Assembly (NCBI GenBank): GCA_964511175.1
Contig: CAZEEI010000002.1
Coordinates: forward strand, 2,063-66,062
Length of the DNA stretch: 64,000 nt
Source: an uncultured Pseudomonadales bacterium
GTDB lineage: Bacteria > Patescibacteriota > Microgenomatia > UBA1400 > UBA1396
Reading direction: 5' to 3'
Position 1 is the first letter of the stretch. Each line of letters starts with the position of its first letter. The notes beneath the pieces are model-generated. The model had not been told where the DNA came from. It did not search any database and saw only the letters and a list, made by a program, of their open reading frames with translations. A program made the position numbers and the translations under genes. Shown one piece after another: positions 733 to 34,448 of the stretch.

Positions 733-771
733 GAGCGCATTGTCCTTGTTTTTGTCAGCTAACACAAGTAT

Positions 772-2922
772 TTATTCGGCTAAACGAGCGATCGTATCCC
801 GCAGGCGCGCGGCCAATTCAAAGTTCCAGGCTTTTGCCGCCTGGTTCATGGCTCGTCCCAACTGCCGCGCCAGCCGCTGTTTGTCGGCTGGTGTCATGGC
901 GGCCGAATCTAAATCTTCTAGGTAAATCGATTCTTGTCGCGAGAGTTTGATTTCGGTTTTACCCTGACTGGATAACTTGGTTTTTTCCCAGCCGATTCCT
1001 GAATGACGTTCGCGTACGCCGAAACTGGTTTCCTGGTCAGTTCGTTTAATTAGTTGGGCTCGCACCGGCTTATTAATGGTTTGGGCGGTGATGTGGTGTT
1101 CCTGGTTAAACTGCAACTGGATTTGCCGGCGGCGCGCCGTCTCTTCCATAGCGGTTTGCATCGAGCCGGTAAGGCGGTCGGCATACAAGATTACCTGCCC
1201 CTCCACGTGGCGCGCCGCCCGCCCCATGGTCTGGATTAAAGCCGGCGCCGAACGCAGAAAACCTTCTTGATCGGCATCTAAAATAGCCACCAAGGTAACT
1301 TCCGGCAGATCAAGTCCTTCCCGCAGCAGGTTAACGCCAATGAGGACATCGTAAACACCGGTACGCAAATCGGTTAAGATTTCCGAACGGGCTAAAGTTT
1401 CCACGTCCGAGTGCAGATACTGAACCTTGGGCAAGGTATCGCTGGCGGTATAGCCGTGACTAATCAACAATTGGTTCATCTTATCTTGGTCGTTCAAAAA
1501 TTCGGTGAGGGTTTCGGCCATCTTTTTAGTTAGGGTAGTGACCAGGACGCGTTGGCCTTTGGCTTTGCGTAAAACAATTTCGTGCAGCAGATCCGGGATT
1601 TGGCCGGTGATGGGTCGCACTTCCACCGGCGGATCAACCAGGCCGGTCGGGCGGACAATTTGTTCCACCACATGATGATTAGCTAGGGAGATTTCGTACT
1701 CATTGGGAGTAGCGGAAACGTAAATGGCGCGGTCTAGTCTCCCCATAAATTCGGCAAATTGCAGCGGTCGGTTGTCCAGGGCGGCCGGCAGACGGAAGCC
1801 GTACTCAATCAAAGTTTCTTTACGCGAACGGTCACCAGCATACATCCCGCGCACTTGAGGCAGCGTCATGTGACTTTCATCAACCACAGTCAAAAACTTA
1901 CCGCCGCTAAACTTGCGGGCGTTAAATTGAAAGTAATCCAACAGAGTGTAAGGTGGTGCACCTGGTTGACGGCCATCAAAATAGCGTGAATAGTTTTCGA
2001 TGCCGTTAACGAAACCCATTTCCCGAATCATATCGATATCGTGCAGGGTGCGTTGTTCCAAACGGTAAGCCTCAATAATTTTGCCCTGACTTTTTAGCTG
2101 AACCACCCGCTGTTGAAGGTCGGCCTCAATTTGTTGCAGTGCCATATTTTGGTCGCGGCCAGCAATATTGTGTTTAGCCGGGTAAATGACGTAGCGGTAG
2201 TGAGGATAGAGACTGGCGGGATGAGGCTCGGTCCAACGGTCGCCAGTGGTCGGATCAATGGGTTCGATGGCCACAATTTCGTCGCCAGGTATAGTAATAT
2301 TCAAGGCCCAGGCTTCACTGGCTGGCCAAAGTTGGATCCGGTCGCCACGCAAGCGGAAGGTTCCTCGTTTAAGATCAGTGGTGGTGCGGGTGTACTGCAT
2401 ATCGGTTAACCGCCGCAGCAGAGTTTGACGCGGCAATAGTTCGCCCGGAATTAGTTCTAAGGCGTGTTGCGCAAAACCGGTCGGATCGCCTAAGTTATAG
2501 ATACACGACACCGACGCCACCACGATGCAGTCTGGCCGGGTCAATAAATTAGCGGTCGCCGCCAGCCGCAGTTTATCGATTTCGTCGTTAATTTGGGATT
2601 CCTTTTCGATATAAGTGTCACTGCTGACTAAGTAAGCTTCCGGTTGGTAATAGTCGTAGTAGGAAACAAAGTAGTTAACGGCGTTATCAGGGAAAAAATC
2701 ACGAAACTCCTGGTAAAGTTGGGCGGCCAGCGTTTTGTTGTGGGCGATTACAAGAGTGGGTAGCTGGGTATTTTGAATAACATTGGCAATGGTGAAAGTT
2801 TTACCCGAACCGGTCACTCCCAGCAGAACCTGATGCGGCTGGTCAGTCAGGTTTTGGGTAAGTGCGGCGATGGCTTGAGATTGGTCGCCAGCGGGCTGAT
2901 AAGGTGATTTTAGGGTAAACAT
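772..2922 (-). CDS. uvrB: Excinuclease ABC subunit B (UvrB)
   Basis: Has a Walker A motif (GVTGSGKTFT), helicase motifs and a C-terminal UvrB/UvrC interaction helix (ELAARLRDTIARLAE), at full UvrB length. The ORF track extends to 3063, but the conserved N-terminus begins at MFTLKSPYQPAGDQ (ATG at 2922). Confidence 0.93.
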   Translation of the reverse strand: MFTLKSPYQPAGDQSQAIAALTQNLTDQPHQVLLGVTGSGKTFTIANVIQNTQLPTLVIAHNKTLAAQLYQEFRDFFPDNAVNYFVSYYDYYQPEAYLVSSDTYIEKESQINDEIDKLRLAATANLLTRPDCIVVASVSCIYNLGDPTGFAQHALELIPGELLPRQTLLRRLTDMQYTRTTTDLKRGTFRLRGDRIQLWPASEAWALNITIPGDEIVAIEPIDPTTGDRWTEPHPASLYPHYRYVIYPAKHNIAGRDQNMALQQIEADLQQRVVQLKSQGKIIEAYRLEQRTLHDIDMIREMGFVNGIENYSRYFDGRQPGAPPYTLLDYFQFNARKFSGGKFLTVVDESHMTLPQVRGMYAGDRSRKETLIEYGFRLPAALDNRPLQFAEFMGRLDRAIYVSATPNEYEISLANHHVVEQIVRPTGLVDPPVEVRPITGQIPDLLHEIVLRKAKGQRVLVTTLTKKMAETLTEFLNDQDKMNQLLISHGYTASDTLPKVQYLHSDVETLARSEILTDLRTGVYDVLIGVNLLREGLDLPEVTLVAILDADQEGFLRSAPALIQTMGRAARHVEGQVILYADRLTGSMQTAMEETARRRQIQLQFNQEHHITAQTINKPVRAQLIKRTDQETSFGVRERHSGIGWEKTKLSSQGKTEIKLSRQESIYLEDLDSAAMTPADKQRLARQLGRAMNQAAKAWNFELAARLRDTIARLAE

Positions 2923-3012
2923 CGATCTGTTATTATACCGGAAAAATAAGGTTTTGCAGCTTTGCCAATTATGGGGAAGTAAGGGATTCATCAAAAGTCG
3001 ACTTTTTTGGTT

Positions 3013-3065
3013 TTGTACAAAATGAACCTCCAAGTTGTACAAAAATATAGTCAATTTGTACAAAA
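3013..3065. promoter_or_regulatory. Three direct copies of TTGTACAAAA spaced 21-22 bp apart in the uvrB upstream region; candidate SOS/LexA-type operator or promoter element
   Basis: TTGTACAAAA occurs at 3013-3022, 3034-3043 and 3056-3065. It contains the palindromic core TGTACA, lies about 90-140 bp upstream of the uvrB start, and lexA is the next gene. Confidence 0.3.
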
Positions 3066-3088
3066 TGCCGAAAAGCGGTTTTTGATAT

Positions 3089-3403
3089 ATGGTAGAAACA
3101 TATCAGGGCTTGACTAAAACGGAATATAGCCAGCAAACCAAGCGCTTTTCTTTTTCTGAAGTTAGTGCTAGGATTACGGGCTATATGAGTCAAACTGAAT
3201 CACGCGAAATGATTAAAATATTGTCCAAAAGTGTTTTTAATTGGGGTCCGGGATTAAGAACAACTTCTCTTCGAGATGGTCGCACCATTACGGTGCAAGA
3301 GCCGGAGGTGTTGCCTAAGGATGATGATCGGCTAGTTTTTCAGGTACTGTCCTTAATTTGCGACGCCTGTCCGTTATATGCCAGTCTCAGTTGCCGACCT
3401 TGA
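3089..3403 (+). CDS. Hypothetical protein (104 aa), divergent from uvrB
   Basis: Only a six-frame ORF in the 700-bp uvrB-lexA intergenic stretch; no recognisable motif. Confidence 0.2.
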   Translation: MVETYQGLTKTEYSQQTKRFSFSEVSARITGYMSQTESREMIKILSKSVFNWGPGLRTTSLRDGRTITVQEPEVLPKDDDRLVFQVLSLICDACPLYASLSCRP

Positions 3404-3762
3404 CTCGAACGTGTGCCTGGCTCGGGTCATGTGTCTAGCATTAATACGCGGGAAGCCAACAATCTCGGCTGTCACCTACACAATATTTTTGTTCCGCAAG
3501 CAGAATTGGTGGCATTGTCTCAGGGAGAAAGAATTGATGACGCTCTGGAAGCTGCAGTACATGGTCTTCCCAGCATGGTGAACCGCCGTAAAGAGCGGGG
3601 TTTGTTGCCAGCTAATAAGGCCGATCGGGCCTAATTGTTATTTCCGATCATCTCTGATCGACTTAGTTCCCTAAAGTGCGAGTTTACAGGTGGGGTTTCT
3701 TTTGGGTATCGTAGGGTTATTCGGGTAAGGTTCGCCGTAAAAAAGGCGGAAGGAGTAAAACT

Positions 3763-4383
3763 ATGGCCGTAACACTATATCGTCGGCAAAGGCAGATCGT
3801 TGACTTTATTGCGCAGTACATTCAACTTAACAATTATTCGCCGACTTTACAGGAAATTGCGGACGCCTTAGGTGTTTCTTCTTTAGCCACCGTGCACGAA
3901 CATTTGCAGGCTTTGGAGAAAAAAGGAGTGATCCGCCGGGCGGACGGCGCCATTCGCGGCATTGAGTTGCTAGACCGTACTTTCTTGAAAATTACCGAAG
4001 GGATCGATTTACCGATTTTGGGTTACGTGGCCGCCGGCCGCCCGATTGAACCCTACACTGATCCCAATGCTACTTTTAAGGTTTCACCCCAATTAATTTC
4101 CGGCAAACGCCGCGCCTATGTTTTGCAGGTCAAGGGTGATTCGATGATTGAAGATGGTATTTTGGAAAACGATTACGTAGTCATTGAGGAACGAGAAGAT
4201 GTACGCGATGGTGACATCGTGGTGGCTCTCCTCGACAATGGTTTGGCCACCCTTAAGCGTTTCTTTAAAGAAGCAACACGGATCCGTTTGGAGCCAGCTA
4301 ACTCCCGCATGCAGCCAATCTTTGCCACCAATGTTAAGATTCAAGGTCAATGTGTGGGACTAATCCGGAAGTTTGCTAATTGA
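3763..4383 (+). CDS. lexA: LexA repressor (S24 peptidase family)
   Basis: N-terminal winged HTH and a C-terminal S24 autopeptidase domain with the KGDSM serine motif and a downstream lysine (ALLDNGLATLKRF). A GGAGG ribosome-binding site precedes the ATG. Confidence 0.9.
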   Translation: MAVTLYRRQRQIVDFIAQYIQLNNYSPTLQEIADALGVSSLATVHEHLQALEKKGVIRRADGAIRGIELLDRTFLKITEGIDLPILGYVAAGRPIEPYTDPNATFKVSPQLISGKRRAYVLQVKGDSMIEDGILENDYVVIEEREDVRDGDIVVALLDNGLATLKRFFKEATRIRLEPANSRMQPIFATNVKIQGQCVGLIRKFAN

Positions 4384-5253
4384 GTGCAGTTTTAATTTTT
4401 TTAACCAAGTTAATTGCCGTTTAGCGTACTGTCTTTCTTGCTGAAACCAAAGTTCCTTGGCTTTAACCAGCGATATTTCTTGATTCAAATAACGGCATAA
4501 GAATTGGTAGCCAGTAGCGGAAAAGGCAGGCGTATTCCAATGGGGATAAGCAGTTATCAAGCGCTGGGTTTCCTCGAGTACACCCCGTTCGAGGCGCTGA
4601 TCAATGCGTTGCCTTAGGTTGGCCTCCAACTGGCTAGGTTCAACCGAATGCAAAATAAGTGAGTACTCATCTGGTTGGAAGAGTGGCGCAGGAACATTAA
4701 TCGGTTGATTAGCCGTTTCAATGGCGCGGATCAGCCGACGAGGATTATGTCGATCCGAATCATTTAATCTCGTGAATTTTTCGGGATTGAGTTGCTTTAA
4801 TTGGATTTGTAAAGAGGCTACATCCAGTAAGGCTAATTCTTGGCGTAACTTTTGATTAACTGGTTGGTAAAGAGTGGCCGGCGGGTCGATTAATACTTGG
4901 GCGTAAGGCCAAGCGCCACCAACCAGCACTAAGGGGTGCTGTTGATGACGGTGCTGTTCGATAATCGGCCGCGCCCAATCGTAGTAGTGACGGATCGAAA
5001 AAGCTTTATCCGGGTTAATGATATTCAGGCCGTAGAGGGCAGGCGCGGCCTTATTGGTTGGCGAACGCCAAACACCAGCCTGGTCTTGCTGGTAACTAGG
5101 AGGGATATCCTGACCGGTGCCAATGGCCATCCCGCGGTAAATTTGGCGCGAATCAAAAGATAGTATGTCCGCCTGTTTCTCCCGCGCTAAAACCAAAGCG
5201 CGGGTGGTTTTGCCGGTAGCTGTGGGGCCAAAAATGATCCAAGTGTGCCACAT
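4360..5253 (-). CDS. miaA: tRNA dimethylallyltransferase (MiaA)
   Basis: P-loop GPTATGKT near the N-terminus and the MiaA-typical ILSFDSRQIYRGMAIGTGQ region. Its 3' end overlaps the 3' end of lexA convergently by 24 bp. Confidence 0.9.
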   Translation of the reverse strand: MWHTWIIFGPTATGKTTRALVLAREKQADILSFDSRQIYRGMAIGTGQDIPPSYQQDQAGVWRSPTNKAAPALYGLNIINPDKAFSIRHYYDWARPIIEQHRHQQHPLVLVGGAWPYAQVLIDPPATLYQPVNQKLRQELALLDVASLQIQLKQLNPEKFTRLNDSDRHNPRRLIRAIETANQPINVPAPLFQPDEYSLILHSVEPSQLEANLRQRIDQRLERGVLEETQRLITAYPHWNTPAFSATGYQFLCRYLNQEISLVKAKELWFQQERQYAKRQLTWLKKLKLHSISKLPD

Positions 5254-5262
5254 AACTTTTTA

Positions 5263-5934
5263 TTATACGGTGATAGCGTAGCCCAAACCGTAAATGGCAC
5301 TTAATCTGACATTCAAAAAGGTTAATTTGCGGCGTAGACGGCGGATGGAAACGTGGATTACGGTGCTGGTTGGTTCAATGCCCAGCCGCCAATAAAATGA
5401 CTGTATTTTTTCGTGCGAGGCATGACCATAACTGGAAAAGAAGAGATGGAGTAACTGCACCTCGCGCTGACTCAAATGAATCGTTTGTTGATCGCGGCAA
5501 AGAAACCGGTCAGCTTCATTTAACTTAAGACCGTTAAATACTATTTCATCACCACTGCGCCAAATACCGCGTCGTAGCAAAGCTTCCACGTGCGCGGCCA
5601 CTTCATGGGGATGTACTGGTTTAGGCAAGTAGGCATCGGCGCCGCTTTGCAAACCGCGTAATTTTTCCGCCAATGTATCTTTATGACTGGTAACGCAAAC
5701 TTTAGTTTCTGGTGTTTCGCGGCGAATAAAAGATAATAGTTCTAAGCCATCGCCATCTGGTAAGACCCGGTCAAGAATAATGACGTCGTAGGGTGCACGA
5801 CTTTCCGCTAAATGATTATAGGCACCAGCCAGAGTTGCGACTTGGTCAACCCGGTAATGGTGACGTAGAGAACGGGCCAAAGCGGTATTGAGTCGACTGT
5901 CATCTTCCACCAATAATAACCGCCCCGTACGCAT
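5263..5934 (-). CDS. OmpR-family response regulator (receiver + winged-helix), no adjacent histidine kinase
   Basis: Receiver domain (LLLVEDD...ILDRVLPDGDGLEL...LPKP) and a C-terminal winged-helix trans_reg_C domain. The likely start is MRTGRLLLVEDD, so the ORF-track N-terminal extension is probably spurious. Confidence 0.85.
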   Translation of the reverse strand: MRTGRLLLVEDDSRLNTALARSLRHHYRVDQVATLAGAYNHLAESRAPYDVIILDRVLPDGDGLELLSFIRRETPETKVCVTSHKDTLAEKLRGLQSGADAYLPKPVHPHEVAAHVEALLRRGIWRSGDEIVFNGLKLNEADRFLCRDQQTIHLSQREVQLLHLFFSSYGHASHEKIQSFYWRLGIEPTSTVIHVSIRRLRRKLTFLNVRLSAIYGLGYAITV

Positions 5935-5968
5935 AGTATGGATTATAAACCGAAAAATTACCGAATAG

Positions 5969-6223
5969 TTACCATTTGATCGGTAGTACCATTTCACCAT
6001 TGCGGTGCAACTGCAGATCTTCGCGGGCGCGCTTTTCTAAAGTAAAACTAGATGTAGCCGTGTGCACTTCTTCCGCAAGTTGATCTGCTTCCGATTCTAG
6101 TTGTTCAACCCGCTGTTGTTGCTGACTCAATTGCTGTCGTGACTGATAAGAAAGCCAGAGGGTACGGGTCAAAGAAGCGGCCAGAGCCGTAACGACTAGG
6201 AAAGAACCAATCTTGAGCCACAT
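5969..6223 (-). CDS. FtsB/DivIC-like septum formation initiator (TM + coiled coil)
   Basis: 84 aa with one N-terminal TM helix followed by a Q/E-rich coiled coil (QQQQRVEQLESEADQLAEEV), which is the architecture of FtsB/DivIC. Confidence 0.5.
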   Translation of the reverse strand: MWLKIGSFLVVTALAASLTRTLWLSYQSRQQLSQQQQRVEQLESEADQLAEEVHTATSSFTLEKRAREDLQLHRNGEMVLPIKW

Positions 6224-6255
6224 AATTTTATTATAAGGTATAATACAACCCTAAC

Positions 6256-7116
6256 ATGTCATGGTCAGAATGCCAAACTAATTACCACGCTTGGTTGCGA
6301 GGTAAAGGAAAAGCCCAAGCCACGGTTATTGCTTACCAAAAGGATGTAGAGCAGTTCGTGGAGTATTTGTCGCGCCTGGGAAAATTAGAACCAACCCAGG
6401 TAGTGATGGAGGATTTTCAGAATTACCAACAGGAATTAACTACCCTGCGTTATACCGATAAATCTATTTCGCGCAAGCTTAATTCGCTAAAATCATTATT
6501 CCGTTATTTACAGGAAGCCGGTCTGGTTGCCGCCAACCCCATGCAGAAAATAAATCATCCTAAATATGAAGTATCTCTGCCACGCGTGCTCAGCCGCCTA
6601 GAGTACCGCGCCTTGCGGGATAGTTGTAAAAGCGATGTGCGGATGAGCACGATTATTGAGTTGTTACTGCAAACCGGCATTCGCATCAGTGAGTTGGCCG
6701 CTTTGCGGGCTGAAGATATTAGTTTAACTAAGAAAGAACTTTACATTGTCGCTCAAAACTCCCACGATTCGCGGGTGGTGCCACTCAACAAAGCTGCTGT
6801 CCAGGCAATTAATGCCTACAGCCAAGTGCGTCCCCGCACTGCGGAGCGCGCCTTTTTCTTGACGAAGAGTTGCCGGCCGTTTTTAGTGCGTAATATTCGC
6901 AGTGCCGTTGATCGCTACTTCCGTCTAGCTGGCGTTAAAGATGCAAAAATCAATGATTTACGTCATACTTTCATTGTCGAACAATTATTGGCCGGTACGC
7001 CTCTAACGACGGTGAGCCAAATTGTCGGGCACAAGCGTTTGTCGACTACCGAGCGATATTTACAGCTGATTGATTTGAAAACGATTGCCACGCCAATCGC
7101 CATTCGTGAACTTTAA
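6256..7116 (+). CDS. Tyrosine site-specific recombinase, XerC/XerD-like
   Basis: N-terminal SAM-like domain and a C-terminal catalytic domain with R...HxxR...Y (RHTF...GHKRLSTTERYLQL). 286 aa, typical Xer size. Confidence 0.85.
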   Translation: MSWSECQTNYHAWLRGKGKAQATVIAYQKDVEQFVEYLSRLGKLEPTQVVMEDFQNYQQELTTLRYTDKSISRKLNSLKSLFRYLQEAGLVAANPMQKINHPKYEVSLPRVLSRLEYRALRDSCKSDVRMSTIIELLLQTGIRISELAALRAEDISLTKKELYIVAQNSHDSRVVPLNKAAVQAINAYSQVRPRTAERAFFLTKSCRPFLVRNIRSAVDRYFRLAGVKDAKINDLRHTFIVEQLLAGTPLTTVSQIVGHKRLSTTERYLQLIDLKTIATPIAIREL

Positions 7117-7133
7117 AAAAGGCCTTAAAATTT

Positions 7134-7481
7134 ATGAAATCATTGATTGAATTTACTGATTGGCAAAAGTTAGATATACGTTTGGGTTCAATATTGGCGG
7201 CCAGTAATCCGGAGTGGTCAAATAAGCTGATTGAATTGCGCGTTGATTTTGGCGAGGCAGGCGAGCGTACTATTTTTACCGGTCTGCGCGCCTGGTATGA
7301 GCCGGAGTTTTTAGTTGGCAAACAAGCCCTGTTCATTATCAATTTGCCGCCCCGCCCCATGGGACCAAGCGTTAGTGAGGGTATGTTGCTTTCGCTGGAT
7401 ACCAAGTCTGCTGATGGCAATTTGCGCCCCACTGTGTTATGGTTGGAAAACTTGGCACCGGCCGGTACACCGGTAGTTTGA
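7134..7481 (+). CDS. tRNA-binding domain protein (CsaA/Trbp111/EMAP-II-like OB fold)
   Basis: LDIRLGSILAA ... FTGLRAWYEPEFLVGKQALFIINLPPRPMGPSVSEGMLLS matches the MetRS C-terminal / CsaA tRNA-binding fold. Confidence 0.7.
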   Translation: MKSLIEFTDWQKLDIRLGSILAASNPEWSNKLIELRVDFGEAGERTIFTGLRAWYEPEFLVGKQALFIINLPPRPMGPSVSEGMLLSLDTKSADGNLRPTVLWLENLAPAGTPVV

Positions 7482-7490
7482 GTATTTTTT

Positions 7491-9398
7491 ATGGCTGCAA
7501 AAGATAAAAACCAGAAACAGGATAAACCGGTGCGTCTACCGCAGCGGCGGGTGGAGCTGCAGATGACTTTCAATCCGCGCCGCAGCCTGATCTGGTTAAT
7601 AGTTTTACTGTTGTTTTTACCATTTTTAGTTAGTGTCTTTTTGGGATCAAAAGATAATAAAGTGCCGCTTTCAGCACTATTGGCCGACGTGCGCTCGGAA
7701 CAAATTCGAAAAGTAACAATTGAGAGTGACGATATCCAAATTGAGTATCGCGATGGTACCCGCAAAGTTTCTCACAAGGAAAGTAATCAGGATTTTGTTT
7801 CCTTATTAAGCGGAGTAGGGGTTGATCCCACTGCTGTTGAGATCGAAGTAAAGGGAATGACCGCTGCTAGTTTATTCTGGGAGTTTGTCATCAATTTTCT
7901 GCCGCTAGTTTTGATGGTCGCTTTCTTTTTCTTCCTTTTCCGCCAGGCGCGGGGGGCGCAGGGTGATATCATGGGTTTTGGCAAGAGCAAGGCTAAGTTT
8001 TTTATCAAAGGTAAGCAGGATGTTAAGTTTGCTGATGTGGGCGGCATGCGTGAGGCCAAGCAAGAGTTAGAGGAAGTAGTTGATTTTCTGCGTAATCCTA
8101 AGAAGTACCAAAAAGTGGGTGCACGAACACCTAAAGGCGCTCTGTTAATTGGTCCCTCCGGTACAGGTAAAACTTTATTAGCGCGCGCCGTCGCCGGTGA
8201 GGCGGGCGTGCCCTTTTTGTCGATTGCTGGTTCCGAATTTATGGAAATGTTGGTCGGAGTCGGCGCGGCGCGCGCCCGCGATTTATTCCAAACCGCTAAA
8301 AAAATGTCACCTTCGATTATCTTTATCGATGAAATCGATGCCATTGGCCGCATGCGTGGTCACGCCAATGGTGCTGGTGGTCACGACGAACGCGAACAAA
8401 CTCTTAACCAGATTTTAGTGGAAATGGATGGTTTTGCCCCCAATGATAATGTAATTGTTTTAGCAGCCACCAACCGCGGTGATTTACTCGATCCGGCTCT
8501 TACCCGCCCGGGGCGCTTTGACCGCCGGGTTACCGTGACTTTGCCGGATATTGAAGAGCGCAAGAAAGTGCTGGCGATTCACGCCCAAAATAAACCTTTT
8601 GTAGTCGGGGTGAACTGGGATTTGATTGCCAAGCGAACCGTCGGTTTTTCTGGCGCCGATCTGGAGAACATGTTGAATGAGGCGGCAATCTTGATTGCGC
8701 GGGAGGGTCGTGACCAAATTAACGCTAAGGATTTAGAAGAAGCGGCTCTGAAGGTAAAACTAGGTCCTTCCAAAAAGCGTCTGCAAAACGATTACGAACG
8801 CCGCATGACGGCTTACCATGAAGTTGGTCACGCTTTGGTGGCTCATTTTCTGCCCCACGCGGATCGGGTACACCGTATCTCTATTGTATCGCGCGGTCAG
8901 GCCTTAGGTTTTACCTTAACGCCACCCGAGGGTGACAAATATCAAGAAACCCGTTCGGAGTTTATGGCCGAGCTGTCAGTTTTGTTAGGTGGTCGCGAGG
9001 CAGAAGAACAGTTTTTTGGCGAACTTACCGGCGGCGCTGCCAGTGATATTAAGAAAGTTACCATGATTGCCCGAGCCATGGTGGTAGATTATGGGATGAG
9101 TCCTTTAGGTCCACTAAATTTTGGTCCCCAGTACGATTTAGATGATTATGGCCGAGCGGCTTTTGAGCCATACCAAATTTCCGACCAGCTGCGGGCGTCG
9201 GTGGATGCGGAAATGGCACGTTTGGTCAATGAGGCCGAACAAGTGACACGTCAGTTAATCAAAAAACATGCTAAGTTGGTGCACCGTGTTGTGGAACGAT
9301 TGTTAGCGGTAGAAACTTTGGAAGCCGAAGAGTTTGAAACCCTAATGGGTGTTCTTAAAGCCAAGCCGAAGGAAAACGGCCGTGACCACACTAATTGA
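7491..9398 (+). CDS. ftsH: ATP-dependent zinc metalloprotease FtsH
   Basis: N-terminal TM segments, AAA+ Walker A ([22 protein letters not shown]), second region of homology, and the zinc site HEVGHAL. Confidence 0.95.
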
Positions 9399-10383
9399 TG
9401 TTGATATTCTAATTGTTGATGCTTTTTCTTTGTTGTTTAGGGCTTTCCACGCTTTTCCTTTATCCCTAACTTCGCCCAGTGGTGAATTAACTAATGCTGT
9501 TTTTGGCTTTACCCGATTGTTGCTGGACGCCCTACATAAAACTATGCCGGAGTATTTAGTGGTTGCTACTGATCAGGGCAAACCCACTTTCCGTCATCAG
9601 GACTACGTGGAATATAAAGCCAATCGTCCGGAGGCGCCACACGAGTTAACGGTGCAGATTGATCGTTTGTATGAGGTGTTGTCGGTTCTCAATATTCCCA
9701 CGATCGGTGTAGATGGCTATGAAGCCGACGACGTTATTGGTACTTTAGCCGCACAACTGCGCCAGGAGTGCCCCGAATTAGTAGTTGGCATTTTAACTGG
9801 CGATCGTGATGCTTATCAGTTGGTGGGCGGCAATGTTGTCGTAGTAACCCCCTCGCATCAGCGCAATGTTGAACTGCAGGTTATTGATAAAGTAGCCGTA
9901 GAAAAACGTTTTGGCATTCTACCTGATCAGGTAGTTGATTACAAAGCATTATGCGGCGATGTTTCCGATAATATTCCTGGTGTCAAAGGTATTGGTCCTA
10001 AGACGGCAGTACAGTTGTTAACCAAATTCGGTTCTTTAACTCGTCTTTATGCTGCCTTAGCCTGGAGTGCCGGCGCAGCGGCAGAGGTGGCGGGCCTGTC
10101 CTTAGCTGAGGATGAAAAAAAGACTTTAATTGAACAATTCTCATCGCTTTCACCAACAGTAGTGCGCAAATTGGCTGATTCGCAGGAAAGTGCTTGGTTA
10201 TCACAGCGGCTGGCGCGTATTGATACGGCAGTGCCTTTATCTTTTACCCTGGCGAGTGCGCGGTTGAGCGATTATGATAAAGAACGGGCGCTAGCTTTGT
10301 TTGATAAGCTTGGTTTTCAGTCGTTAAAGAAACGATTACCGGCGGATAATTTTGAAGCCGGCGTCCAAGCAAGTTTATTTTAG
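9349..10383 (+). CDS. Stand-alone 5'-3' exonuclease (Pol I N-terminal/FEN-like), no polymerase domain
   Basis: 5'-3' exonuclease motifs (LIVDAFSLLFRAF, GDRDAYQLV, DNIPGVKGIGPKTAVQLL, with the helix-hairpin-helix). It ends at 344 aa with no polymerase domain. Its annotated start overlaps the ftsH end by 50 nt, so the true start is uncertain. Confidence 0.85.
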   Translation: MFLKPSRRKTAVTTLIDVDILIVDAFSLLFRAFHAFPLSLTSPSGELTNAVFGFTRLLLDALHKTMPEYLVVATDQGKPTFRHQDYVEYKANRPEAPHELTVQIDRLYEVLSVLNIPTIGVDGYEADDVIGTLAAQLRQECPELVVGILTGDRDAYQLVGGNVVVVTPSHQRNVELQVIDKVAVEKRFGILPDQVVDYKALCGDVSDNIPGVKGIGPKTAVQLLTKFGSLTRLYAALAWSAGAAAEVAGLSLAEDEKKTLIEQFSSLSPTVVRKLADSQESAWLSQRLARIDTAVPLSFTLASARLSDYDKERALALFDKLGFQSLKKRLPADNFEAGVQASLF

Positions 10384-10391
10384 GAGGTTAG

Positions 10392-11360
10392 ATGGCTTTT
10401 AAACCTGGCAGTATTATTCAAGACCGCTTTTTATTAACCGCCATGGAGCAACGTACTACCAAACAGGGCAAGAAGTTCTACACTTTGCAGTTAGCTCATC
10501 CGGAGGGCGCGATTGCCGGTACCATTTGGAGTGAGGCCATACCCCGCGTTAAAATCGTGCCGGATGCGGTGGTTTACTTGGAAGGCAAGATCGATAGTTA
10601 CAATGGCCGCACTTCGTTAGTGGTGGAGTCGGGTTACACTTTAGCCGACGCCGACCCGGCCGAGTTTTTAACCGCGGTTAAAACAACCCCGACGTTAATT
10701 TTTGATATTGAGACAGTGGGTATTCCTTTCGCTGACATTGCAGCCGAATCACAACGGTATCTACTGGAAAGACTGGAACGGGCGGAAACACCGACCGACC
10801 AAGAAGCCGCCAAACAGAAAACCGGTCTTTACCCCCTATTTGGTTACGTGGGAGCGATCGGTTTACTTGACACCCGGCAGAAAGGGACGGTTCTACTGCT
10901 GAATAAATCGGCCGTTACCATGGAAGACCAGCGTTTTAGTTGTGAAGTTTTTTCGACCGAGAAAGAATTATTAACCCGTTTTTGGGAAATCGCTGCTAAA
11001 TACCAACGTTTTGTTACTTACAATGGGCTCAGTTTTGATTGGCCTTTTTTAGTGTTTCGCTCTGGCGTTAACCGAGTTAAGGTATCGGTGCCGATCCGTC
11101 CCTGGAACAAAGATGAGAACAATTTGGATTTAGCCGTGGAAATTCCGCCTAGCCGGACAATGTATAAATTAAGTGAGGTGACCAAGGCAATGGGCTTGTC
11201 TAATCCCAAAGAGGCCGGGGTAAATGGCGGTGACGTGACCGCCCTTTTTGCGGCTGGTCAGCAGTCAGTGGTGGCTCAGTATGTGGCTCGCGATGTCAGT
11301 TCAACGGAACAATTATATGAGCTTTGGCGCACTTATTTGGCGGGACGTACGATTGTTTAG
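10392..11360 (+). CDS. Predicted 3'-5' exonuclease (DEDD/RNase H-like fold, PolB-exonuclease-like) with N-terminal OB fold
   Basis: The N-terminal ~100 aa look like an OB fold. It is followed by Exo I-like LIFDIETVGIP and Exo II-like YNGLSFDWPFL motifs, as in COG3298/YprB-type predicted exonucleases. Confidence 0.5.
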   Translation: MAFKPGSIIQDRFLLTAMEQRTTKQGKKFYTLQLAHPEGAIAGTIWSEAIPRVKIVPDAVVYLEGKIDSYNGRTSLVVESGYTLADADPAEFLTAVKTTPTLIFDIETVGIPFADIAAESQRYLLERLERAETPTDQEAAKQKTGLYPLFGYVGAIGLLDTRQKGTVLLLNKSAVTMEDQRFSCEVFSTEKELLTRFWEIAAKYQRFVTYNGLSFDWPFLVFRSGVNRVKVSVPIRPWNKDENNLDLAVEIPPSRTMYKLSEVTKAMGLSNPKEAGVNGGDVTALFAAGQQSVVAQYVARDVSSTEQLYELWRTYLAGRTIV

Positions 11361-11396
11361 ATTGCTGGGTGGAAAAACAACAGTTATACTGGGGTA

Positions 11397-12104
11397 ATGT
11401 TAGAAGAGCGTGATTTGACGTTTGGTTCGTCAGGTCGGTTGCGTAGCGGCTGGGGTAGTTTGGTTAATGACCGAGCTAGTTTTACACCCACCCCTCGTCG
11501 TCGCCATTCACGTCGCGGTTTATTAGGTGCGGTTTTAGTCGTTTTAGTGCTTGGTTTGGGTTTAGTGGCCGCCCTGTTGGCTAGCCAGACCAATTTAGAT
11601 CTACGTCAGTTCGCCTGGGGTGGAGTTAATTTAAACACTAGCCTTTTTCAGCAGCGCTGGCTGGGTCCCAATCTGCAGGAGGTCATAGCCCGAGCTCCGT
11701 CGCAAGCCGGGGTCAAGGAGGTTTTTCACCAGTTAACCCGTCTTTATTGGGATGCTGACGTAGTTAACATTTCTTTACCACAGTTTGATTTTAACGGTGT
11801 AGCGTTTAAGGCCTATGAACCCAGCCGGAACGTTACTTATATTTTTGCCCGTCTAAATAACGTGCCGTGGGTGGAGGGTAAATATCTGGCGCTTTGGCTG
11901 GAAGGTAACGATGGCAGCTGGCTTTATGCCGGTTCACCGGAGTACACCATCGAATCCGGAGTTCTAGTGGCCTATTTTACTTTCCCTCTGGAGGGCAAAG
12001 TCGATCAGTACCGTATTCTCCATATCACTAGCGATAAGACCCAGCGTTCTTCTTTACCGGGCGATGATTTATTAGCTATTGCGTTTGCGGAGGATCAGCC
12101 ATGA
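11397..12104 (+). CDS. Hypothetical membrane-anchored protein (235 aa), translationally coupled to the giant protein gene
   Basis: Single N-terminal TM anchor (LLGAVLVVLVLGLGLVAALLAS) then an extracytoplasmic domain. Its stop TGA overlaps the ATG of the next gene (ATGA at 12101-12104). Confidence 0.5.
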   Translation: MLEERDLTFGSSGRLRSGWGSLVNDRASFTPTPRRRHSRRGLLGAVLVVLVLGLGLVAALLASQTNLDLRQFAWGGVNLNTSLFQQRWLGPNLQEVIARAPSQAGVKEVFHQLTRLYWDADVVNISLPQFDFNGVAFKAYEPSRNVTYIFARLNNVPWVEGKYLALWLEGNDGSWLYAGSPEYTIESGVLVAYFTFPLEGKVDQYRILHITSDKTQRSSLPGDDLLAIAFAEDQP

Positions 12105-15100
12105 GTGTTTGGTCGTCGCTATACTATTGTGGTCGACGCTTGCTGTCAGTATCTTTGCTAATTGGTTTGCTGATATTAGGATCAGCCGGTATTGCTTGGG
12201 CTTGTGATAATGGCGTGCCGGAAGGTGGTGAGGCGCGCAATGCCGGCAACGGTTGTGCCTATCGTTGTGTTAATGGCGGTTGGGAGGGGCCGATTTGGTG
12301 TGATGGTCAAGGTAACGGTCAATTTCAGGGGGAAGCGGCGCGCAGTGAAGCCGACCGGCAAGTTCAGACTAATGCAGTGGCAGAGTCTTTAGCCGAAGCT
12401 GCTGCCCAACTAGCGCAACAGTCGCCTGAGGAAACTGCGCAACATGCTACTAACAATGCCAATCAGCGGGCGTTGGAAGCGATACGTCAGCAAGCGATGG
12501 TTGAATCTCAGCGGCAAGCGGCGGTGGCTAGCGGTGTTTCGGCGGCCGAAGCCGCGGCGCGGTCTTCGGCCGCATCGGCCAACGTATCCCAAGCAGCTGG
12601 TACTACTCAAGGATCTTCGTTGGTAGGCAGCGGCAATCTACTAGCCAATCAACTAGCTGCTTCCGGTTATGGTTCGCCGGAGCAGGCTTTGGCAGCGGCC
12701 GGCTTGTCTGGTTCCAACGTAGCTGGTGCGGCAGTCAGTCAGGCAGTTAATCCGGAGAGTCTAGGTGGATCGTGCGATCTCAACACCGGTGCGGCCGGCA
12801 GCCAAGGGGTGGGTGGCGTTTGCTGCCGGGGTGGAGTGGCGGAATGTGGAGCGGACACCAACGGAGCTTGTATGTCGACACTCGACCGTCCAGGTGTAGT
12901 GGGGGTTTGTGGGGCAGCCGGTAGTCAAGATATATCTGGTTTTTGTGGCGATAGTTTTTGTAACGGTGCCAACGAAAACGCTAACAGTTGTGAGGCTGAT
13001 TGTCGTAATGTTGCCGCCGGCCAATCCGGTAATGCTCTGTTTTTGAGGGAAGGTGGCAAGTGTGTATCTTGTCCATCCGGCAAAGAAAATTCTTGTGGTA
13101 CCTATGCTGAATGTTTACGGGGGGAGACTGATCAACCACTAGTCGAGGCAGTTACCTTAACGCCGGCGCAGCAGCGGCAAATGGATCAATTAACCAATCT
13201 GGCCGACCAGTGTCGCAACGCCATTTACTCTGAGGACGACATTAATGGATTTAAGTGCACTAATCGTTATTTGGAAAAATATAACGAAGTCGCTCAAACC
13301 GCAGACGGTAAAGTAGTAACGGCGCTTATCACCGAACGCCGTGAAGCCGAAAATCACATATATGATCTGGCTGCGAATCTTGCCGAACAGAATATCAATT
13401 GTGAACAGGCCATAAAAACAGGATCCAATTGTCTGATGAATCTTGAGGATTATGAACTAGGCTATGCTGATGCGCTGGCGAGATTTGCCAAATTATATCC
13501 GGAGAGGGCGGCGAAGGTAGAGAGCAATAGCAAAAACTATCAAACCTATTTGGACGAGGAAGCTGGACGAGCTTTGGACACGGCAAAAAACTTAGAACAG
13601 CGTTTTGAAGATTTAGCAACAGAGGTACAATCGCAGTGTAAGGGTGCAGGTTCTCTAGACGAAGTAACAAAGTGTGTCGACCGCAAACGCAACGTGGTAG
13701 AGGCAGCTTATCAAAATTACTCTGATCCGGAGAGTTCATTTTGTCAGCGTTTTCCTAAAAGTTGCGTGTCAGCTAAGGATATTGCATCCGAAGTCCAAGC
13801 GGTGAATGTCGACAATTTGTATCCTGAGGTGGAAGGTAAATATAAACCTGATGGTAGTAGGGTTTGCCGCAGAAATTTGGACAACCTTAATAATTGTGTA
13901 GCATCAATTCCTGGTCAGGTTGAGGTAACGCCGGGAAAGCCGGCCGAAACTAGCCCGGTTGTACCTCCAGAAATCCCTACCGCTCCGGTTGTCCCAACTG
14001 GACTGATTGCGCCCTCTGTTCCGGATGTTCCGAGTGGTAGTGTTCGTGATACTGGTTCAAGAGTTGGGCTTACTAGCGAACAGAAAGCAGCTATCGACGG
14101 CTCAACTGCGGAAACGGTAGCTCCCGCCACGATTCAAGGTTTTGCAATTGAAACGAGAGTAAACCAAGAAGGAGAATCCGAAAATATTTGCCCCGATAAC
14201 TTACCCGGTGGTTGTCACTGTGGTACTAGTGATATTATGTCTGGCATGGGTTGCCCTGCGGGTTCGACCCTAGGGCTTGAAACGTATCCTTGGCGTTGTC
14301 CCAGCCAACCAGAGGTATCGTATTGTCAATGTGATGGTAGGAATGTACTTCCTGATGGCAGTTGTCCCGCGGGATCGGCTTTCTCTGTTATATATGGTTC
14401 GTCAACCAACGAGCAAGAAGAAGCGATTAATGGCTCAGCGGTATCGTTAACCCCACCGGAGACAACGGCTGCTTCCTCTACTGTAGTGGGTGATAAATGT
14501 CCAGACACGTTGGATGGTAAAGAAGTAAAACGGTGTAATTGTGGAACGGGTGACGTTAAAGAGGCTATTGATTCAGGTGACTCTTGTCCGGATGGTTCGT
14601 CGCCTCAGGTAGTCTTGGCTAAGTCGACACCAGCTGACTCAACTACTGTGGTGGCATCATTTTCCCAAGAACAAGTGAATGCTTTTGGCGGGCAGGTGAT
14701 TAACGCACTGCGTAATGTGGGGCAAAATATTACTAATGCTTGGGCCGGTCTTTTTGGTTCGGTTACGGGTGGTACAACAAAACAAGATACTACTACAACG
14801 CAACCAACCACTTCTCAATCGACTAATGAAACAGATCAGTCCACCAGCGAAACAGAGTTCGAAACCAGGCCTGATGAGCAAGGTTGGGATGTTAATATTT
14901 GCCCAGCCGAAGCAGCTGATGGTTGTAATTGTGAGGGTCGTTATATTCGGCCGGGTCAGGAATGCCGGGTACATTTATCCCTAACGGTGTTAAGTAGTGA
15001 GACACCAGTTCAAACTTGTCCCACTAATGCTAATGTTCTCTACTGTGAATGTGACCTAACCACACGACAGCCGGGCGAGACTTGTCCGAGTACCGCCAAG

Positions 15101-16066
15101 TTTAACATTGTTAGGAGTCGGCAGAATGTGATTACTGATCTTACTGATGGTGTTAGGCGAGTAGCGGAACAAGTCTCTTACGCCGTTAATACTCTGGCTC
15201 GTCAGTATGCTGCTAGCCAACTACTTGGTTCGATACAGAATGCTTTGGGAAATATAATGGGTTCTTCCTCGAAGAGTACGACTGAAGTAGATCAAGTTAC
15301 TACCACAACGGAAACCGAAACCGCGCCGATAGCGGAATTGCCTGAAGGAAAAACAGCGGTAGAAGTTCGCAATACACCAATTTCTGGCAACCAGCTTTTA
15401 GATGGTGGTAAAGGATTAGGAAATGGTAGCACTCAAGATAACGGCAACTTTCAGCTTGAAGGATATTGCCAGGTCAAAAACACAGAAAACATGCAATATA
15501 CAGGGGCTATTTCTGATAATGCAGGTAATTGGTTTTGTACAAACGAAAGTGGGGCAAAAGTTCCGCTTACACCAACTGATATGGATGTAGTATGTGGTTT
15601 GACGTATAAAACTGGTGCAAATTTCAACTCAGATGCTGTTGCCGTATTTGTGCCGGGGTTAACTGGTACTCCTGCTTACAACTGGCGTTGCGGGAGCCGT
15701 AGCGGTTCACCGCCACCAATTGAGACATCAGTTGATGAGGCAACGCCAGTAAAAGATTCCCAACAGCCTGAACCCGTGCTTCTCATGAATGGAACTGGTT
15801 TATCGAACGACCAAAGTGTGACTAACGGCAAGATGCAGGTGGAAGGCTACTGCACTGATCAGGGATATGGTATTAAGCAAGACAATACGAATTGGTACTG
15901 TACCGATGCCCAAAATAATGCGGTAAAGACACTTACCTCTACAGATTTTAACCAAATCTGTCAAGAAACATACAACGATCCCAGTGCCTTTGCTGTACAA
16001 GACGGAGCAGATTCGGTTGCCGCTTACAACTGGAACTGTTACGGTTATAATGAGTCGTCACAATGA
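12101..16066 (+). CDS. Giant (1321 aa) secreted cysteine-rich repeat protein; candidate surface adhesin/glycoprotein
   Basis: Signal/anchor (LLSVSLLIGLLILGSAGIAWA) followed by an Ala/Gln/Ser low-complexity region, Cys-rich modules, P/T-rich and T/S-rich linkers, three copies of a CP..GC.C..(W)RCP..YC.CD..CP module and two tandem C-terminal ~90-aa repeats (EGYC...NW[FY]CT...AYNW.C). Uninterrupted 3966-nt ORF; its stop overlaps the ugd start (ATGA at 16063-16066). Confidence 0.8.
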   Translation: MSVWSSLYYCGRRLLSVSLLIGLLILGSAGIAWACDNGVPEGGEARNAGNGCAYRCVNGGWEGPIWCDGQGNGQFQGEAARSEADRQVQTNAVAESLAEAAAQLAQQSPEETAQHATNNANQRALEAIRQQAMVESQRQAAVASGVSAAEAAARSSAASANVSQAAGTTQGSSLVGSGNLLANQLAASGYGSPEQALAAAGLSGSNVAGAAVSQAVNPESLGGSCDLNTGAAGSQGVGGVCCRGGVAECGADTNGACMSTLDRPGVVGVCGAAGSQDISGFCGDSFCNGANENANSCEADCRNVAAGQSGNALFLREGGKCVSCPSGKENSCGTYAECLRGETDQPLVEAVTLTPAQQRQMDQLTNLADQCRNAIYSEDDINGFKCTNRYLEKYNEVAQTADGKVVTALITERREAENHIYDLAANLAEQNINCEQAIKTGSNCLMNLEDYELGYADALARFAKLYPERAAKVESNSKNYQTYLDEEAGRALDTAKNLEQRFEDLATEVQSQCKGAGSLDEVTKCVDRKRNVVEAAYQNYSDPESSFCQRFPKSCVSAKDIASEVQAVNVDNLYPEVEGKYKPDGSRVCRRNLDNLNNCVASIPGQVEVTPGKPAETSPVVPPEIPTAPVVPTGLIAPSVPDVPSGSVRDTGSRVGLTSEQKAAIDGSTAETVAPATIQGFAIETRVNQEGESENICPDNLPGGCHCGTSDIMSGMGCPAGSTLGLETYPWRCPSQPEVSYCQCDGRNVLPDGSCPAGSAFSVIYGSSTNEQEEAINGSAVSLTPPETTAASSTVVGDKCPDTLDGKEVKRCNCGTGDVKEAIDSGDSCPDGSSPQVVLAKSTPADSTTVVASFSQEQVNAFGGQVINALRNVGQNITNAWAGLFGSVTGGTTKQDTTTTQPTTSQSTNETDQSTSETEFETRPDEQGWDVNICPAEAADGCNCEGRYIRPGQECRVHLSLTVLSSETPVQTCPTNANVLYCECDLTTRQPGETCPSTAKFNIVRSRQNVITDLTDGVRRVAEQVSYAVNTLARQYAASQLLGSIQNALGNIMGSSSKSTTEVDQVTTTTETETAPIAELPEGKTAVEVRNTPISGNQLLDGGKGLGNGSTQDNGNFQLEGYCQVKNTENMQYTGAISDNAGNWFCTNESGAKVPLTPTDMDVVCGLTYKTGANFNSDAVAVFVPGLTGTPAYNWRCGSRSGSPPPIETSVDEATPVKDSQQPEPVLLMNGTGLSNDQSVTNGKMQVEGYCTDQGYGIKQDNTNWYCTDAQNNAVKTLTSTDFNQICQETYNDPSAFAVQDGADSVAAYNWNCYGYNESSQ

Positions 16067-17361: not shown

Positions 17362-18308
17362 ACCCACGTGTTTTAATCACTGGCGCTTCCGGTTTTGTCG
17401 GATCCCACTTGGTTGAGTATTTATTAAAACAAGGCTATGCCGATCTTTGGGCGACCGCCAATACACCATCGCCGTGGCTGAATGAACAAGTGGGTGAGGA
17501 TCATGTTGCCGTGATTGATTTGACCGAAAGCCAAGCGGTGTTTGATCTAGTAGCTAATACCAAACCAGATTGGATTATTCACTTAGCCGGACTGGCTTTT
17601 GTGGGGGAAAGCTTTGATCGGGCCACGGAAGTTATGAATAATAATACGGCCTTGCAGTACATTATGCTGGAAGCGATGCGCCGTTTTGTGCCTAAGGCCA
17701 GAATGCTGGCGATTGGTTCGGCGGCGGAGTATGGTTCCTTGCCGGCGGAGTTTGACAGCAGCCGGATTACGGAGGATTTTCCCCTCTATCCCAACAACCC
17801 TTACGCGGTATCTAAACTTACCCAGGATTTTTTGTCACTGTCCTACCACTTGGCTTATGGGCTGGACGTGGTGCGAGTGCGGCCTTTCAATCAAATCGGT
17901 CCCCGCCAGACCGGCCAATTTGCCGTGCCAGCCTTCGCCCAACAAATTGTCCGAGTCGAACGGGGCGAGCAGGAACAAGTAATGGTTGGCAATTTAACAG
18001 CAGTGCGTGATTTTACTGATGTCCGGGATGCGGTGCAGGTTTATGAGTTACTGCTCCAAAAAGGCCGGTCCGGCGAAGTTTACAATCTTGGTTCCGGTCA
18101 GGGCGTTGCTCTCCAGACAATACTCGATATACTAATATCGATGGCTCAGAAGCCGGTTGAGGTGGCGGTTGACCCAGCTCGCCTGCGCCCGGTTGACGTT
18201 CCGGTGTTTGTTGCCGGTAATCAGAAAATTAAGGATCTTGGTTGGCGGCCGCAAATCGAACTGCGCCAAACTTTAGCCGATGTCCTAGCTTACGAAAGGA
18301 AACAATGA
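17358..18308 (+). CDS. NAD-dependent epimerase/dehydratase (SDR extended family; possibly a GDP-4-keto-6-deoxymannose reductase/epimerase partner of Gmd)
   Basis: [19 protein letters not shown] Rossmann motif and a YAVSK catalytic YxxxK. It sits directly upstream of gmd, and its ATG overlaps the ugd stop. Confidence 0.8.
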
Positions 18309-19279: not shown

Positions 19280-19286
19280 AGTACGT

Positions 19287-20519: not shown

Positions 20520-20520
20520 T

Positions 20521-22107: not shown

Positions 22108-22113
22108 AACCAT

Positions 22114-24059: not shown

Positions 24060-24061
24060 TT

Positions 24062-25552: not shown

Positions 25553-25555
25553 TTC

Positions 25556-26506: not shown

Positions 26507-26512
26507 TCTTTA

Positions 26513-28602: not shown

Positions 28603-28605
28603 ATT

Positions 28606-30446: not shown

Positions 30447-30492
30447 ATAACTTCCCAGCATTCTGACAGAGTTGAAGGTTAAAATCAAAAGT

Positions 30493-31449: not shown

Positions 31450-31467
31450 TGAGTTAAGTATAGCAGT

Positions 31468-32879: not shown

Positions 32880-32885
32880 GTCCTG

Positions 32886-34424: not shown

Positions 34425-34439
34425 TATTCAAGCATAAAA

Positions 34440-34448
34440 TGGTATAAT
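34440..34448 (+). promoter_or_regulatory. Extended -10 promoter element (TGGTATAAT) for ssrA
   Basis: TGGTATAAT ends 14 nt upstream of the tmRNA 5' GGGG. Confidence 0.45.

Follow-up and report, generated by a model that had tools for sequence, protein, structure and literature searches.

Contig CAZEEI010000002.1 of an uncultured small-genome, Woesebacteria-like bacterium of the Microgenomatia lineage (assembly GCA_964511175.1) was analysed over a stretch of 64,000 nucleotides, referred to below as the window, which carries two adjacent nuclease genes on its plus strand. Gene 1 (9382..10383) encodes a stand-alone 5'-3' exonuclease/flap endonuclease (FEN), and gene 2 (10392..11360) encodes a protein of 322 amino acids (aa) in which an OB-fold domain is followed by a DEDDy exonuclease domain of the type found in family-B DNA polymerases (PolB). 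That gene 2 specifies an OB fold joined to an active DEDDy 3'-5' exonuclease is regarded as highly probable. The wider interpretation, which on balance is favoured here, is that its product is a 3'-end exonuclease of single-stranded DNA (ssDNA), combining an OB fold of the YhaM type with a PolB-type DEDDy domain, and that it is made together with the FEN for the trimming of DNA ends and flaps in both polarities.

A PolB-type exonuclease domain in gene 2

Both open reading frames (ORFs) on the plus strand, 9349..10383 and 10392..11360, lie where an initial annotation, made by a model from the letters alone, had placed them, and the make-up that it proposed for the second, an OB-fold-like N-terminus ahead of a DEDD exonuclease of the PolB/DnaQ type, is borne out by Pfam, by profile comparison with the PDB, by AlphaFold and by Foldseek. 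In Pfam, the protein scores above the gathering cutoffs of DNA_pol_B_exo2 (PF10108; 50.8 bits against a cutoff of 24, E=2.2e-13) and RNase_H_2 (PF13482; 40.4 bits against 22, E=4e-10), both of which the annotation had suggested as a check, as well as that of PF03104 (27.2 bits, E=3e-6, aa 184-225). The only other match at E<=0.1 was to PF01336, and the scan contained no Pol-A exonuclease family, no HD domain and no polymerase domain. The RNase H-like DEDDy domain spans aa 101-316 (10692..11339, plus strand), as supported by these three Pfam families, the PDB profile and Foldseek.

The residues expected of a DEDDy active site are all in place on the plus strand. The Exo I motif FDIET (aa 104-108; 10701..10715) supplies the predicted catalytic D105 and E107, the Exo II motif YNGLSFDWPFL (aa 210-220; 11019..11051) supplies D216, and the Exo III motif YVARD (11280..11294), which defines the DEDDy subclass, supplies Y297 and D301. 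These five residues align with D141, E143, D215, Y311 and D315 of Pfu Pol; hence a loss of catalytic carboxylates, which would have spoken against the initial annotation, is not seen. The patterns DxE, Nx2-3[FY]D and Yx3D, with four carboxylates and a tyrosine, are likewise present. A search of 5.8 billion proteins returned 51 homologues, and conservation was read from an alignment of 28, down to 27% identity, over which the FDIET and YNGLSFDWPFL motifs picked out earlier are conserved: D105, I106, E107 and T108 are invariant (28/28), as are G212, D216 and P218 of Exo II, while Y297 and D301 of Exo III are conserved in at least 90%.

When compared with the PDB, the alignment profile finds the proofreading domains of archaeal family-B polymerases (E=1.5e-14). 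The AlphaFold2 model (predicted local distance difference test score (pLDDT) 91.9; predicted template modelling score 0.82) places an OB barrel at aa 8-83 and then an alpha/beta domain at aa 101-316, and both the model and Foldseek assign the latter an RNase H-like fold. All of the top 50 Foldseek matches in the PDB are the N-terminal and exonuclease modules of family-B polymerases (E ~2e-11, probability 1.00), including those of Pfu, Tgo, KOD, E. coli Pol II, Pol epsilon, herpes simplex virus (HSV) and African swine fever virus (ASFV). The family-B proofreading domain (Pfu, Tgo, KOD Pol, E. coli Pol II, Pol epsilon) is thus the best match by profile as well as by structure, and it has the five catalytic residues in common with gene 2. 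However, the gene 2 protein has no palm, fingers or thumb (PF00136), its PDB alignments are confined to the exonuclease region of the polymerases (residues ~181-322), and it stops 21 residues past the Exo III aspartate D301. The gene 2 family further differs from the PolB exonuclease in a helical insert of its own between Exo I and Exo II (aa ~112-150, containing KTGLYPLFG) and in the additional invariant residues R223, S224, D246, P272 and K273. Sequence and predicted structure alike mark the exonuclease domain of gene 2 as a genuine DEDDy domain from the PolB lineage. Matches in PHROGs are to polymerase-exonuclease families only, such as PHROG 403, 'DNA polymerase exonuclease subunit' (E=2.7e-7). 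In PADLOC, gene 2 had only a marginal DEDDh match (E=0.008), and the FEN and the downstream gene had none; membership of an anti-phage defence system was dropped because no PADLOC match was significant.

An N-terminal OB fold of the YhaM type

The OB-fold barrel of gene 2 (aa 8-83; 10413..10640, plus strand) was recognized from AlphaFold strands and from a profile of the OB domain alone. Its strands in the model are at aa 8-22, 28-36, 39-45, 59-70 and 73-83 (block-mean pLDDT 89-96), and the PF01336 OB match, at aa 23-80, is sub-threshold. The full-length profile of gene 2 also matches the N-terminal OB domain of YhaM/Cbf1 in the PDB (7e-12). With the OB-only profile, which was built from 18 sequences, YhaM/Cbf1 (9o7t, E=3e-15) and B. 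subtilis YhaM (9h3f, E=2.5e-12) are matched over the whole domain, and archaeal RPA is matched far more weakly (~1e-3). The same profile, whose 98 positions are probably too few for the size of the database, had no significant match among the 5.8 billion proteins. W46 is invariant and Y70 nearly invariant in the OB domain, and they align with W51 and Y76 of YhaM. The YhaM variants W51A and Y76A have been made by Hinrichs and co-workers, and ssDNA binding was drastically reduced in Y76A (PMC12107432). According to the same study, YhaM is an ssDNA-specific 3'-deoxyribonuclease that binds single-stranded RNA weakly and is required for natural transformation (PMC12107432).

The likeness between gene 2 and YhaM/Cbf1 of Firmicutes (PDB 9h3f, 9o7t; PMC12107432) therefore comprises a homologous N-terminal OB domain with its Trp and Tyr, a similar size (322 versus ~314 aa) and a common logic, in which an OB fold is followed by a metal-dependent 3'-exonuclease domain. 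The catalytic domains, however, are unrelated, being an HD phosphohydrolase in YhaM and an RNase H-like DEDDy domain in gene 2; moreover, the YhaM hexamer is formed by the HD domain, which gene 2 does not have. Because there is no HD match and the C-terminal fold is DEDDy, gene 2 is considered an architectural analogue and not a member of the YhaM family. By its sequence, it looks like a YhaM analogue in which the HD domain has been swapped for a PolB-like exonuclease and the OB module for substrate binding has been retained. Regulation by the SOS response, as for YhaM, was dropped as a candidate, as a LexA box of the Gram-positive type (GAAC-N4-GTTC) was not found anywhere in the window.

A stand-alone FEN without a polymerase domain

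The longest ORF of gene 1 runs from a GTG at 9349 to 10383 (344 aa), and a second GTG, at 9382, is favoured as the start by gene callers and homologues, giving a protein of 333 aa (9382..10383, plus strand). With this change of start, the description of gene 1 as carrying all the 5'-nuclease motifs of Pol I and then ending holds good. The protein matches PF02739 (E=4e-50) and PF01367 (E=1e-26), and the Pol I models TIGR00593 and PRK05755 are matched only over positions ~1-286 (2-286 in TIGR00593). Its score on TIGR00593, 302 bits, is short of the cutoff of 600 for full-length Pol I, and Klenow domains are missing. In pairwise alignment, it is 35% identical to residues 9-294 of E. coli PolA, and the nine carboxylates of the E. 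coli Pol I 5'-nuclease are all kept (D13, D63, E113, D115, D116, D138, D140, D185 and D188). By these residues, gene 1 encodes a complete and catalytically intact stand-alone 5'-nuclease.

The 120 best homologues of the FEN are all 272-359 aa long and consist of the two 5'-nuclease domains only, with no polymerase domain; the named sources among them are Woesebacteria, Pacebacteria, Beckwithbacteria, the 'Microgenomates group' and the 'Patescibacteria group'. Since every one of them stands alone, a stand-alone FEN is taken to be the norm in Patescibacteria and not a peculiarity of this locus. A stand-alone 5'-nuclease is common in reduced genomes. Gene 1 resembles other bacterial proteins of this kind, such as ExoIX/Xni, B. 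subtilis YpcP/ExoR and the 5'-nuclease-only 'polA' of Mycoplasma and Buchnera, in its two Pfam domains, its nine carboxylates and its lack of a polymerase domain. However, it falls below the NCBIfam equivalog cutoffs of PRK14976 and Xni and is nearer to the Pol I N-terminus, and it differs from the known stand-alone FENs in an insert of ~25 aa in the H3TH/SAM-fold domain.

Upstream, the 3' end of ftsH (ORF 7491..9398, plus strand), a conserved neighbour, overlaps the FEN start at GTG 9382 by 17 nucleotides (nt). In every Woesebacteria/Microgenomates locus examined, the order is tRNA_bind, FtsH (AAA and Peptidase_M41) and FEN (PF02739 and PF01367), and tRNA_bind-ftsH-FEN is the conserved core of this gene string. 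The nearest relatives of both the FEN and the exonuclease are metagenome-assembled genomes (MAGs) labelled Candidatus Woesebacteria, at 70-73% identity. In some relatives, a small K+ channel gene (Ion_trans_2), which the window lacks, stands between ftsH and the FEN (6551-6982 in locus L002, 5531-5995 in L007 and 4697-5092 in L008); its variable presence indicates that the ftsH-FEN junction tolerates insertions.

The junction between the FEN and the exonuclease

The FEN and the exonuclease genes are separated by 8 nt. On the plus strand, a Shine-Dalgarno sequence, AGGAGG (10382..10387), can be read, which shares nucleotides with the TAG stop codon of the FEN (10381..10383) and is followed after 4 nt by the exonuclease ATG at 10392; no promoter-like or terminator-like signal was found between the two genes. 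The pair is kept in L002/L010, L091 and L092 (exonuclease identities of 70%, 55% and 54%, respectively), with gaps of 2-9 nt and with different genes downstream. The short gap, the Shine-Dalgarno sequence over the FEN stop, the lack of an intervening terminator or promoter and the retention of the pair in relatives make co-expression of the two nucleases likely, and the genes are probably co-transcribed and translationally coupled.

In two other loci, L007 and L009, where the FEN is 56-60% identical, the neighbourhood is otherwise collinear with the window and has no exonuclease gene. The order there is LexA, IPPT, response regulator, DivIC, XerC, tRNA_bind, FtsH, FEN, a ~250-aa gene, a ~1200-aa gene and UDP-glucose dehydrogenase; a third genome, L008, is also without the exonuclease gene. 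In a neighbour-joining tree of the exonuclease domain alone, the OB-bearing proteins are monophyletic and so are the FEN-linked proteins, each in 100/100 bootstraps, from which it follows that the OB fusion arose once and that placement behind the FEN also arose once and was kept in a single clade.

Downstream of the exonuclease in the window, a 235-aa ORF with a hydrophobic segment (11397..12104) overlaps a 1321-aa ORF rich in Cys, Ser and Thr (12101..16066), and no Pfam domain was found in either. A homologous pair directly follows the FEN in L007 and L009 and is absent from L002 and L091; the two ORFs are probably a variable surface protein module.

Relatives of the exonuclease and their gene neighbours

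When one genome was scanned for each GTDB species, at least 512 relatives of gene 2 came to light, the best 80 loci of which were examined for the OB form and for a FEN within the fetched flanks. The OB form was found at 24 of these loci, in Woesebacteria, Shapirobacteria and unlabelled or mislabelled Patescibacteria, with a FEN in the flanks of the Woesebacteria locus only, and the remaining 56 have the exonuclease domain alone (exo-only). The family is widespread, its cluster representatives numbering 292 with E<=1e-30 as the limit and 3462 with E<=1e-10. The OB form accounts for ~16 of the top 150, and the majority of relatives are exo-only, ~220-250 aa long, and occur in Paceibacteria, Yanofskybacteria, Moranbacteria, Omnitrophota and others. 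In many species-representative MAGs with the title 'uncultured Gammaproteobacteria bacterium' or 'uncultured Bdellovibrionales bacterium', the exonuclease gene and the genes around it are of the Patescibacteria type (L013-L030, L043, L056, L059, L065-L069, L071, L076, L078 and L080), and these names look like placeholder or erroneous taxonomy.

Stand-alone PolB-like 3'-5' exonucleases have been catalogued as PF10108/COG3298, with PF13482 (RNase_H_2) as a related family (PMC3985635), and gene 2 agrees with them in its Pfam scores, its complete DEDDy motifs and its lack of a polymerase domain; the exo-only relatives conform to this family as well. Unlike the typical single-domain PF10108/COG3298 protein, it has an added N-terminal OB fold of the YhaM type, which is not among the domain combinations listed for these families by Majorek et al. 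2014 (PMC3985635). The same authors give PF10108/COG3298 only as 'predicted' exonucleases, and they describe in the PF13482 family (COG2251) a domain, DUF83, that resembles PD-(D/E)XK nucleases (PMC3985635).

Neighbours were clustered over the 75 loci in which the exonuclease ORF had been located. The exo-only form has, in 12 species, a tightly coupled downstream gene of ~250 aa on the same strand (L040, L044, L045, L051, L052, L054, L055, L060, L062, L077, L084 and L086, e.g. L086:3034-3807). Ten of these 12 genes match PF12705 (PD-(D/E)XK; best E=3e-6), and a profile of all 12 finds human mitochondrial MGME1, an exonuclease of DNA flaps and ends, as the closest PDB entry (1.6e-5). The single-sequence Pfam match to PD-(D/E)XK is sub-threshold, and the identity was accepted on the 12-member test together with the MGME1 profile match. 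The MGME1-like partner has invariant C178, C181, C201 and H203 (L086 numbering), which suggests a metal-binding insertion. The two genes look like an undescribed two-nuclease operon.

In COG2251-type proteins and in the exo-only/MGME1-like pair of the Yanofskybacteria type, a PolB-like 3'-5' exonuclease goes together with a nuclease for DNA 5' ends or flaps, which is also the logic of the FEN-exonuclease pair. The latter differs in that its partner is a FEN (PIN-like/H3TH fold) and not a PD-(D/E)XK nuclease, and in that the proteins are separate and not fused as in COG2251. Because the family is linked to nucleases of DNA 5' ends or flaps along two unrelated lines, through FEN and through PD-(D/E)XK, there is moderate evidence for a role in DNA end processing. 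In addition, recA lies within four ORFs of the OB-form gene in 7 Shapirobacteria-type loci.

Proposed function and alternative explanations

The product of gene 2 would be a metal-dependent 3'-to-5' exonuclease of single-stranded nucleic acid, most likely acting on the 3' tails or flaps of ssDNA, with catalysis by a two-metal set of D105, E107, D216, Y297 and D301. The OB fold may hold the single strand and feed its 3' end into the exonuclease domain. The FEN and the exonuclease are probably made together from the ftsH-FEN transcript, and the pair could trim both polarities, with 5' flaps and RNA primers as the targets of the FEN and 3' flaps or tails as those of the exonuclease, in a setting such as gap repair, recombination or the processing of imported ssDNA. 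DNA is considered a more likely substrate than RNA because of the MGME1-like partner, the COG2251 precedent, the ssDNA preference of YhaM and the proximity of recA in 7 loci. Of the explanations offered in the initial annotation, a novel exonuclease of repair or primer processing is the one that this evidence favours.

Several observations weigh against this interpretation. The exonuclease is dispensable, as sister genomes of the same synteny do without it. FEN adjacency, which is found at 1 of 24 OB-form loci of other species and at none of 56 exo-only loci, was rejected as a general trait of the family, and because it stems from one event and is rare elsewhere, it could be a historical accident kept by inertia. 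At the Shapirobacteria-type loci of the OB form, the only recurrent neighbours are opposite-strand housekeeping genes (BacA, S9, L13 and pyrophosphatase), which give no functional clue. No biochemically characterised member of PF10108/COG3298 was found in a literature search. Finally, the type of substrate is deduced, given that DEDDy enzymes include RNases (RNase D and Rrp6) and that YhaM also degrades RNA.

This last point leads to an alternative considered unlikely, in which gene 2 encodes an exonuclease for RNA 3' ends. In a genome poor in exoribonucleases, it would serve rRNA or tRNA maturation or the decay of mRNA, and its location behind the FEN would be incidental. Its OB fold is homologous to that of YhaM, which has long been annotated as a 3'-5' exoribonuclease (NCBIfam PRK13480 match, PDB names), the DEDDy subclass to which RNase D and Rrp6 belong would accommodate such an activity, and the gene adjoins ribosomal-protein and rpoA clusters in many loci. 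However, those ribosomal neighbours are encoded on the other strand where the OB form is present, YhaM prefers ssDNA for both binding and degradation, the nearest relatives by sequence and fold are all proofreading domains of DNA polymerases, and the recurrent operon partners are DNA nucleases (FEN and the MGME1-like PD-(D/E)XK protein). The homology to proofreading modules could instead be taken at face value, with gene 2 as a proofreader acting in trans, which docks on DnaE, or on a Klenow-like Pol I without an active 3'-5' exonuclease, in the manner of epsilon for Pol III. The PHROG 403 match and a weak likeness of the OB domain to the C-terminal OB of DnaE (NCBIfam PRK05673 and PRK07373, E ~0.01) are in keeping with this. 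Yet a polymerase gene is adjacent in none of ~90 loci, a clamp- or polymerase-binding motif was not identified, and absence from close and otherwise collinear genomes is unexpected for a component of the replisome. Most non-proteobacterial DnaE proteins, besides, proofread via their own PHP domain, and the proposal is held to be very improbable.

The explanation put forward initially, that the two genes are the 5'-3' and 3'-5' activities of Pol I encoded apart, as a split polA or as a replacement of an absent one, stands only in the sense that nucleases of the two polarities lie side by side; the exonuclease is of the PolB and not of the PolA type. It draws on the closeness of the FEN to the Pol I N-terminus (302 bits on TIGR00593, 35% identity to E. 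coli PolA), on the adjacency and probable translational coupling of the genes and on the lack of a Pol A polymerase domain in the window. The absence of an adjacent polymerase domain, already noted then, was upheld: Pfam detects none in either protein, in ten of the largest ORFs of the window (432-781 aa) or in the 1321-aa ORF, and tblastn with E. coli PolA finds no polymerase region in the 64 kb. Over the window and 836 kb of sequence from related loci, PolA residues 324-517 and 518-928 have no match and the same search recovers FEN genes only, which is a weak negative; 64 kb out of a contig of at least 201 kb are insufficient to show that polA is absent, and a literature search found no statement on polA in Microgenomates. 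The exonuclease, on the other hand, matches PF10108 and PF03104 and no Pol-A exonuclease family (PF01612), members of its family, some with the OB fold and some lacking it, occur independently in hundreds of species, and nearly all of the 120 stand-alone FEN homologues have no exonuclease neighbour. A split polA was rejected in view of the PolB-type exonuclease and the missing matches to PolA 324-928, and the Pol I framing as such fails because of the PolB lineage, the stand-alone FEN as the norm of the phylum, the sister genomes without the exonuclease and the single adjacency event. As far as the sequences go, the FEN-exonuclease pair is not derived from Pol I; the proposal is already contradicted as an evolutionary statement and, taken as a whole, is barely credible.

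A bolder version of the favoured interpretation, which is speculative and quite unlikely, would make gene 2 a non-homologous replacement of YhaM, trimming the ssDNA 3' ends of imported or damaged DNA in Microgenomates. In the Woesebacteria clade it would have been wired to the FEN as a two-polarity module independent of a polymerase, and would functionally mimic the two nucleases of Pol I, or those of Pol delta together with FEN1.

Novelty and significance

Much of what is described here is already known, since the FEN is ordinary and the exonuclease domain belongs to a family that is catalogued, yet uncharacterised. The new elements are an architecture of a YhaM-type OB fold and a PolB-type exonuclease, which is a combination of known domains limited to a subgroup of Microgenomates, its operonic link to a FEN in one clade, and a corresponding association of the exo-only form with a nuclease resembling MGME1. 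The finding overturns nothing and would not surprise a specialist. The OB-fused subfamily offers a testable handle on the function of PF10108/COG3298, as it has its OB fold in common with the characterised YhaM and its operon partners point to the processing of DNA ends or flaps. Moreover, members of the candidate phyla radiation (CPR)/Patescibacteria get by with a minimal set of repair genes and rely on the uptake of DNA, and identification of the ssDNA 3'-exonuclease that they use would close a gap in the reconstruction of their DNA metabolism. Gene 2 is also a clean example of the displacement of a catalytic domain behind a conserved substrate-binding module. If the bolder, quite unlikely version of the interpretation is true and the genomes prove to be without a Pol I polymerase as well, the pair together with Pol III would constitute an undescribed minimal kit for the processing of Okazaki fragments and gaps.

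Other features of the window

Proteins encoded elsewhere in the window include UvrB, LexA, XerC, FtsH, ClpB and GatA/B, and a tmRNA is also present. The latter (34463..34877, plus strand) was detected with Rfam at 77 bits, the full model 1-374 being spread over 415 nt, and was not reported by ARAGORN; it may carry an insertion or have an atypical structure. Between the divergent uvrB and lexA genes lie ~700 bp (3064..3762), which hold no GAAC-N4-GTTC and have an apparent extra ORF of just under 150 aa on the plus strand.

The block at 24000..32600 has a low GC content (0.38-0.41 versus ~0.47 elsewhere), genes on the minus strand and a negative GC skew. It is a surface-polysaccharide cluster with GT2, UDP-galactopyranose mutase, two epimerases/dehydratases, a nucleotidyl transferase, a UbiA prenyltransferase and GT4, and it may have been acquired horizontally. 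Except in this block, the cumulative GC skew rises near-monotonically from 0 to 1.9 over the window (1..64000), which fits a single replichore; an unusual one-directional skew that extends genome-wide has been reported for a closed Microgenomates genome (PMC7143001).

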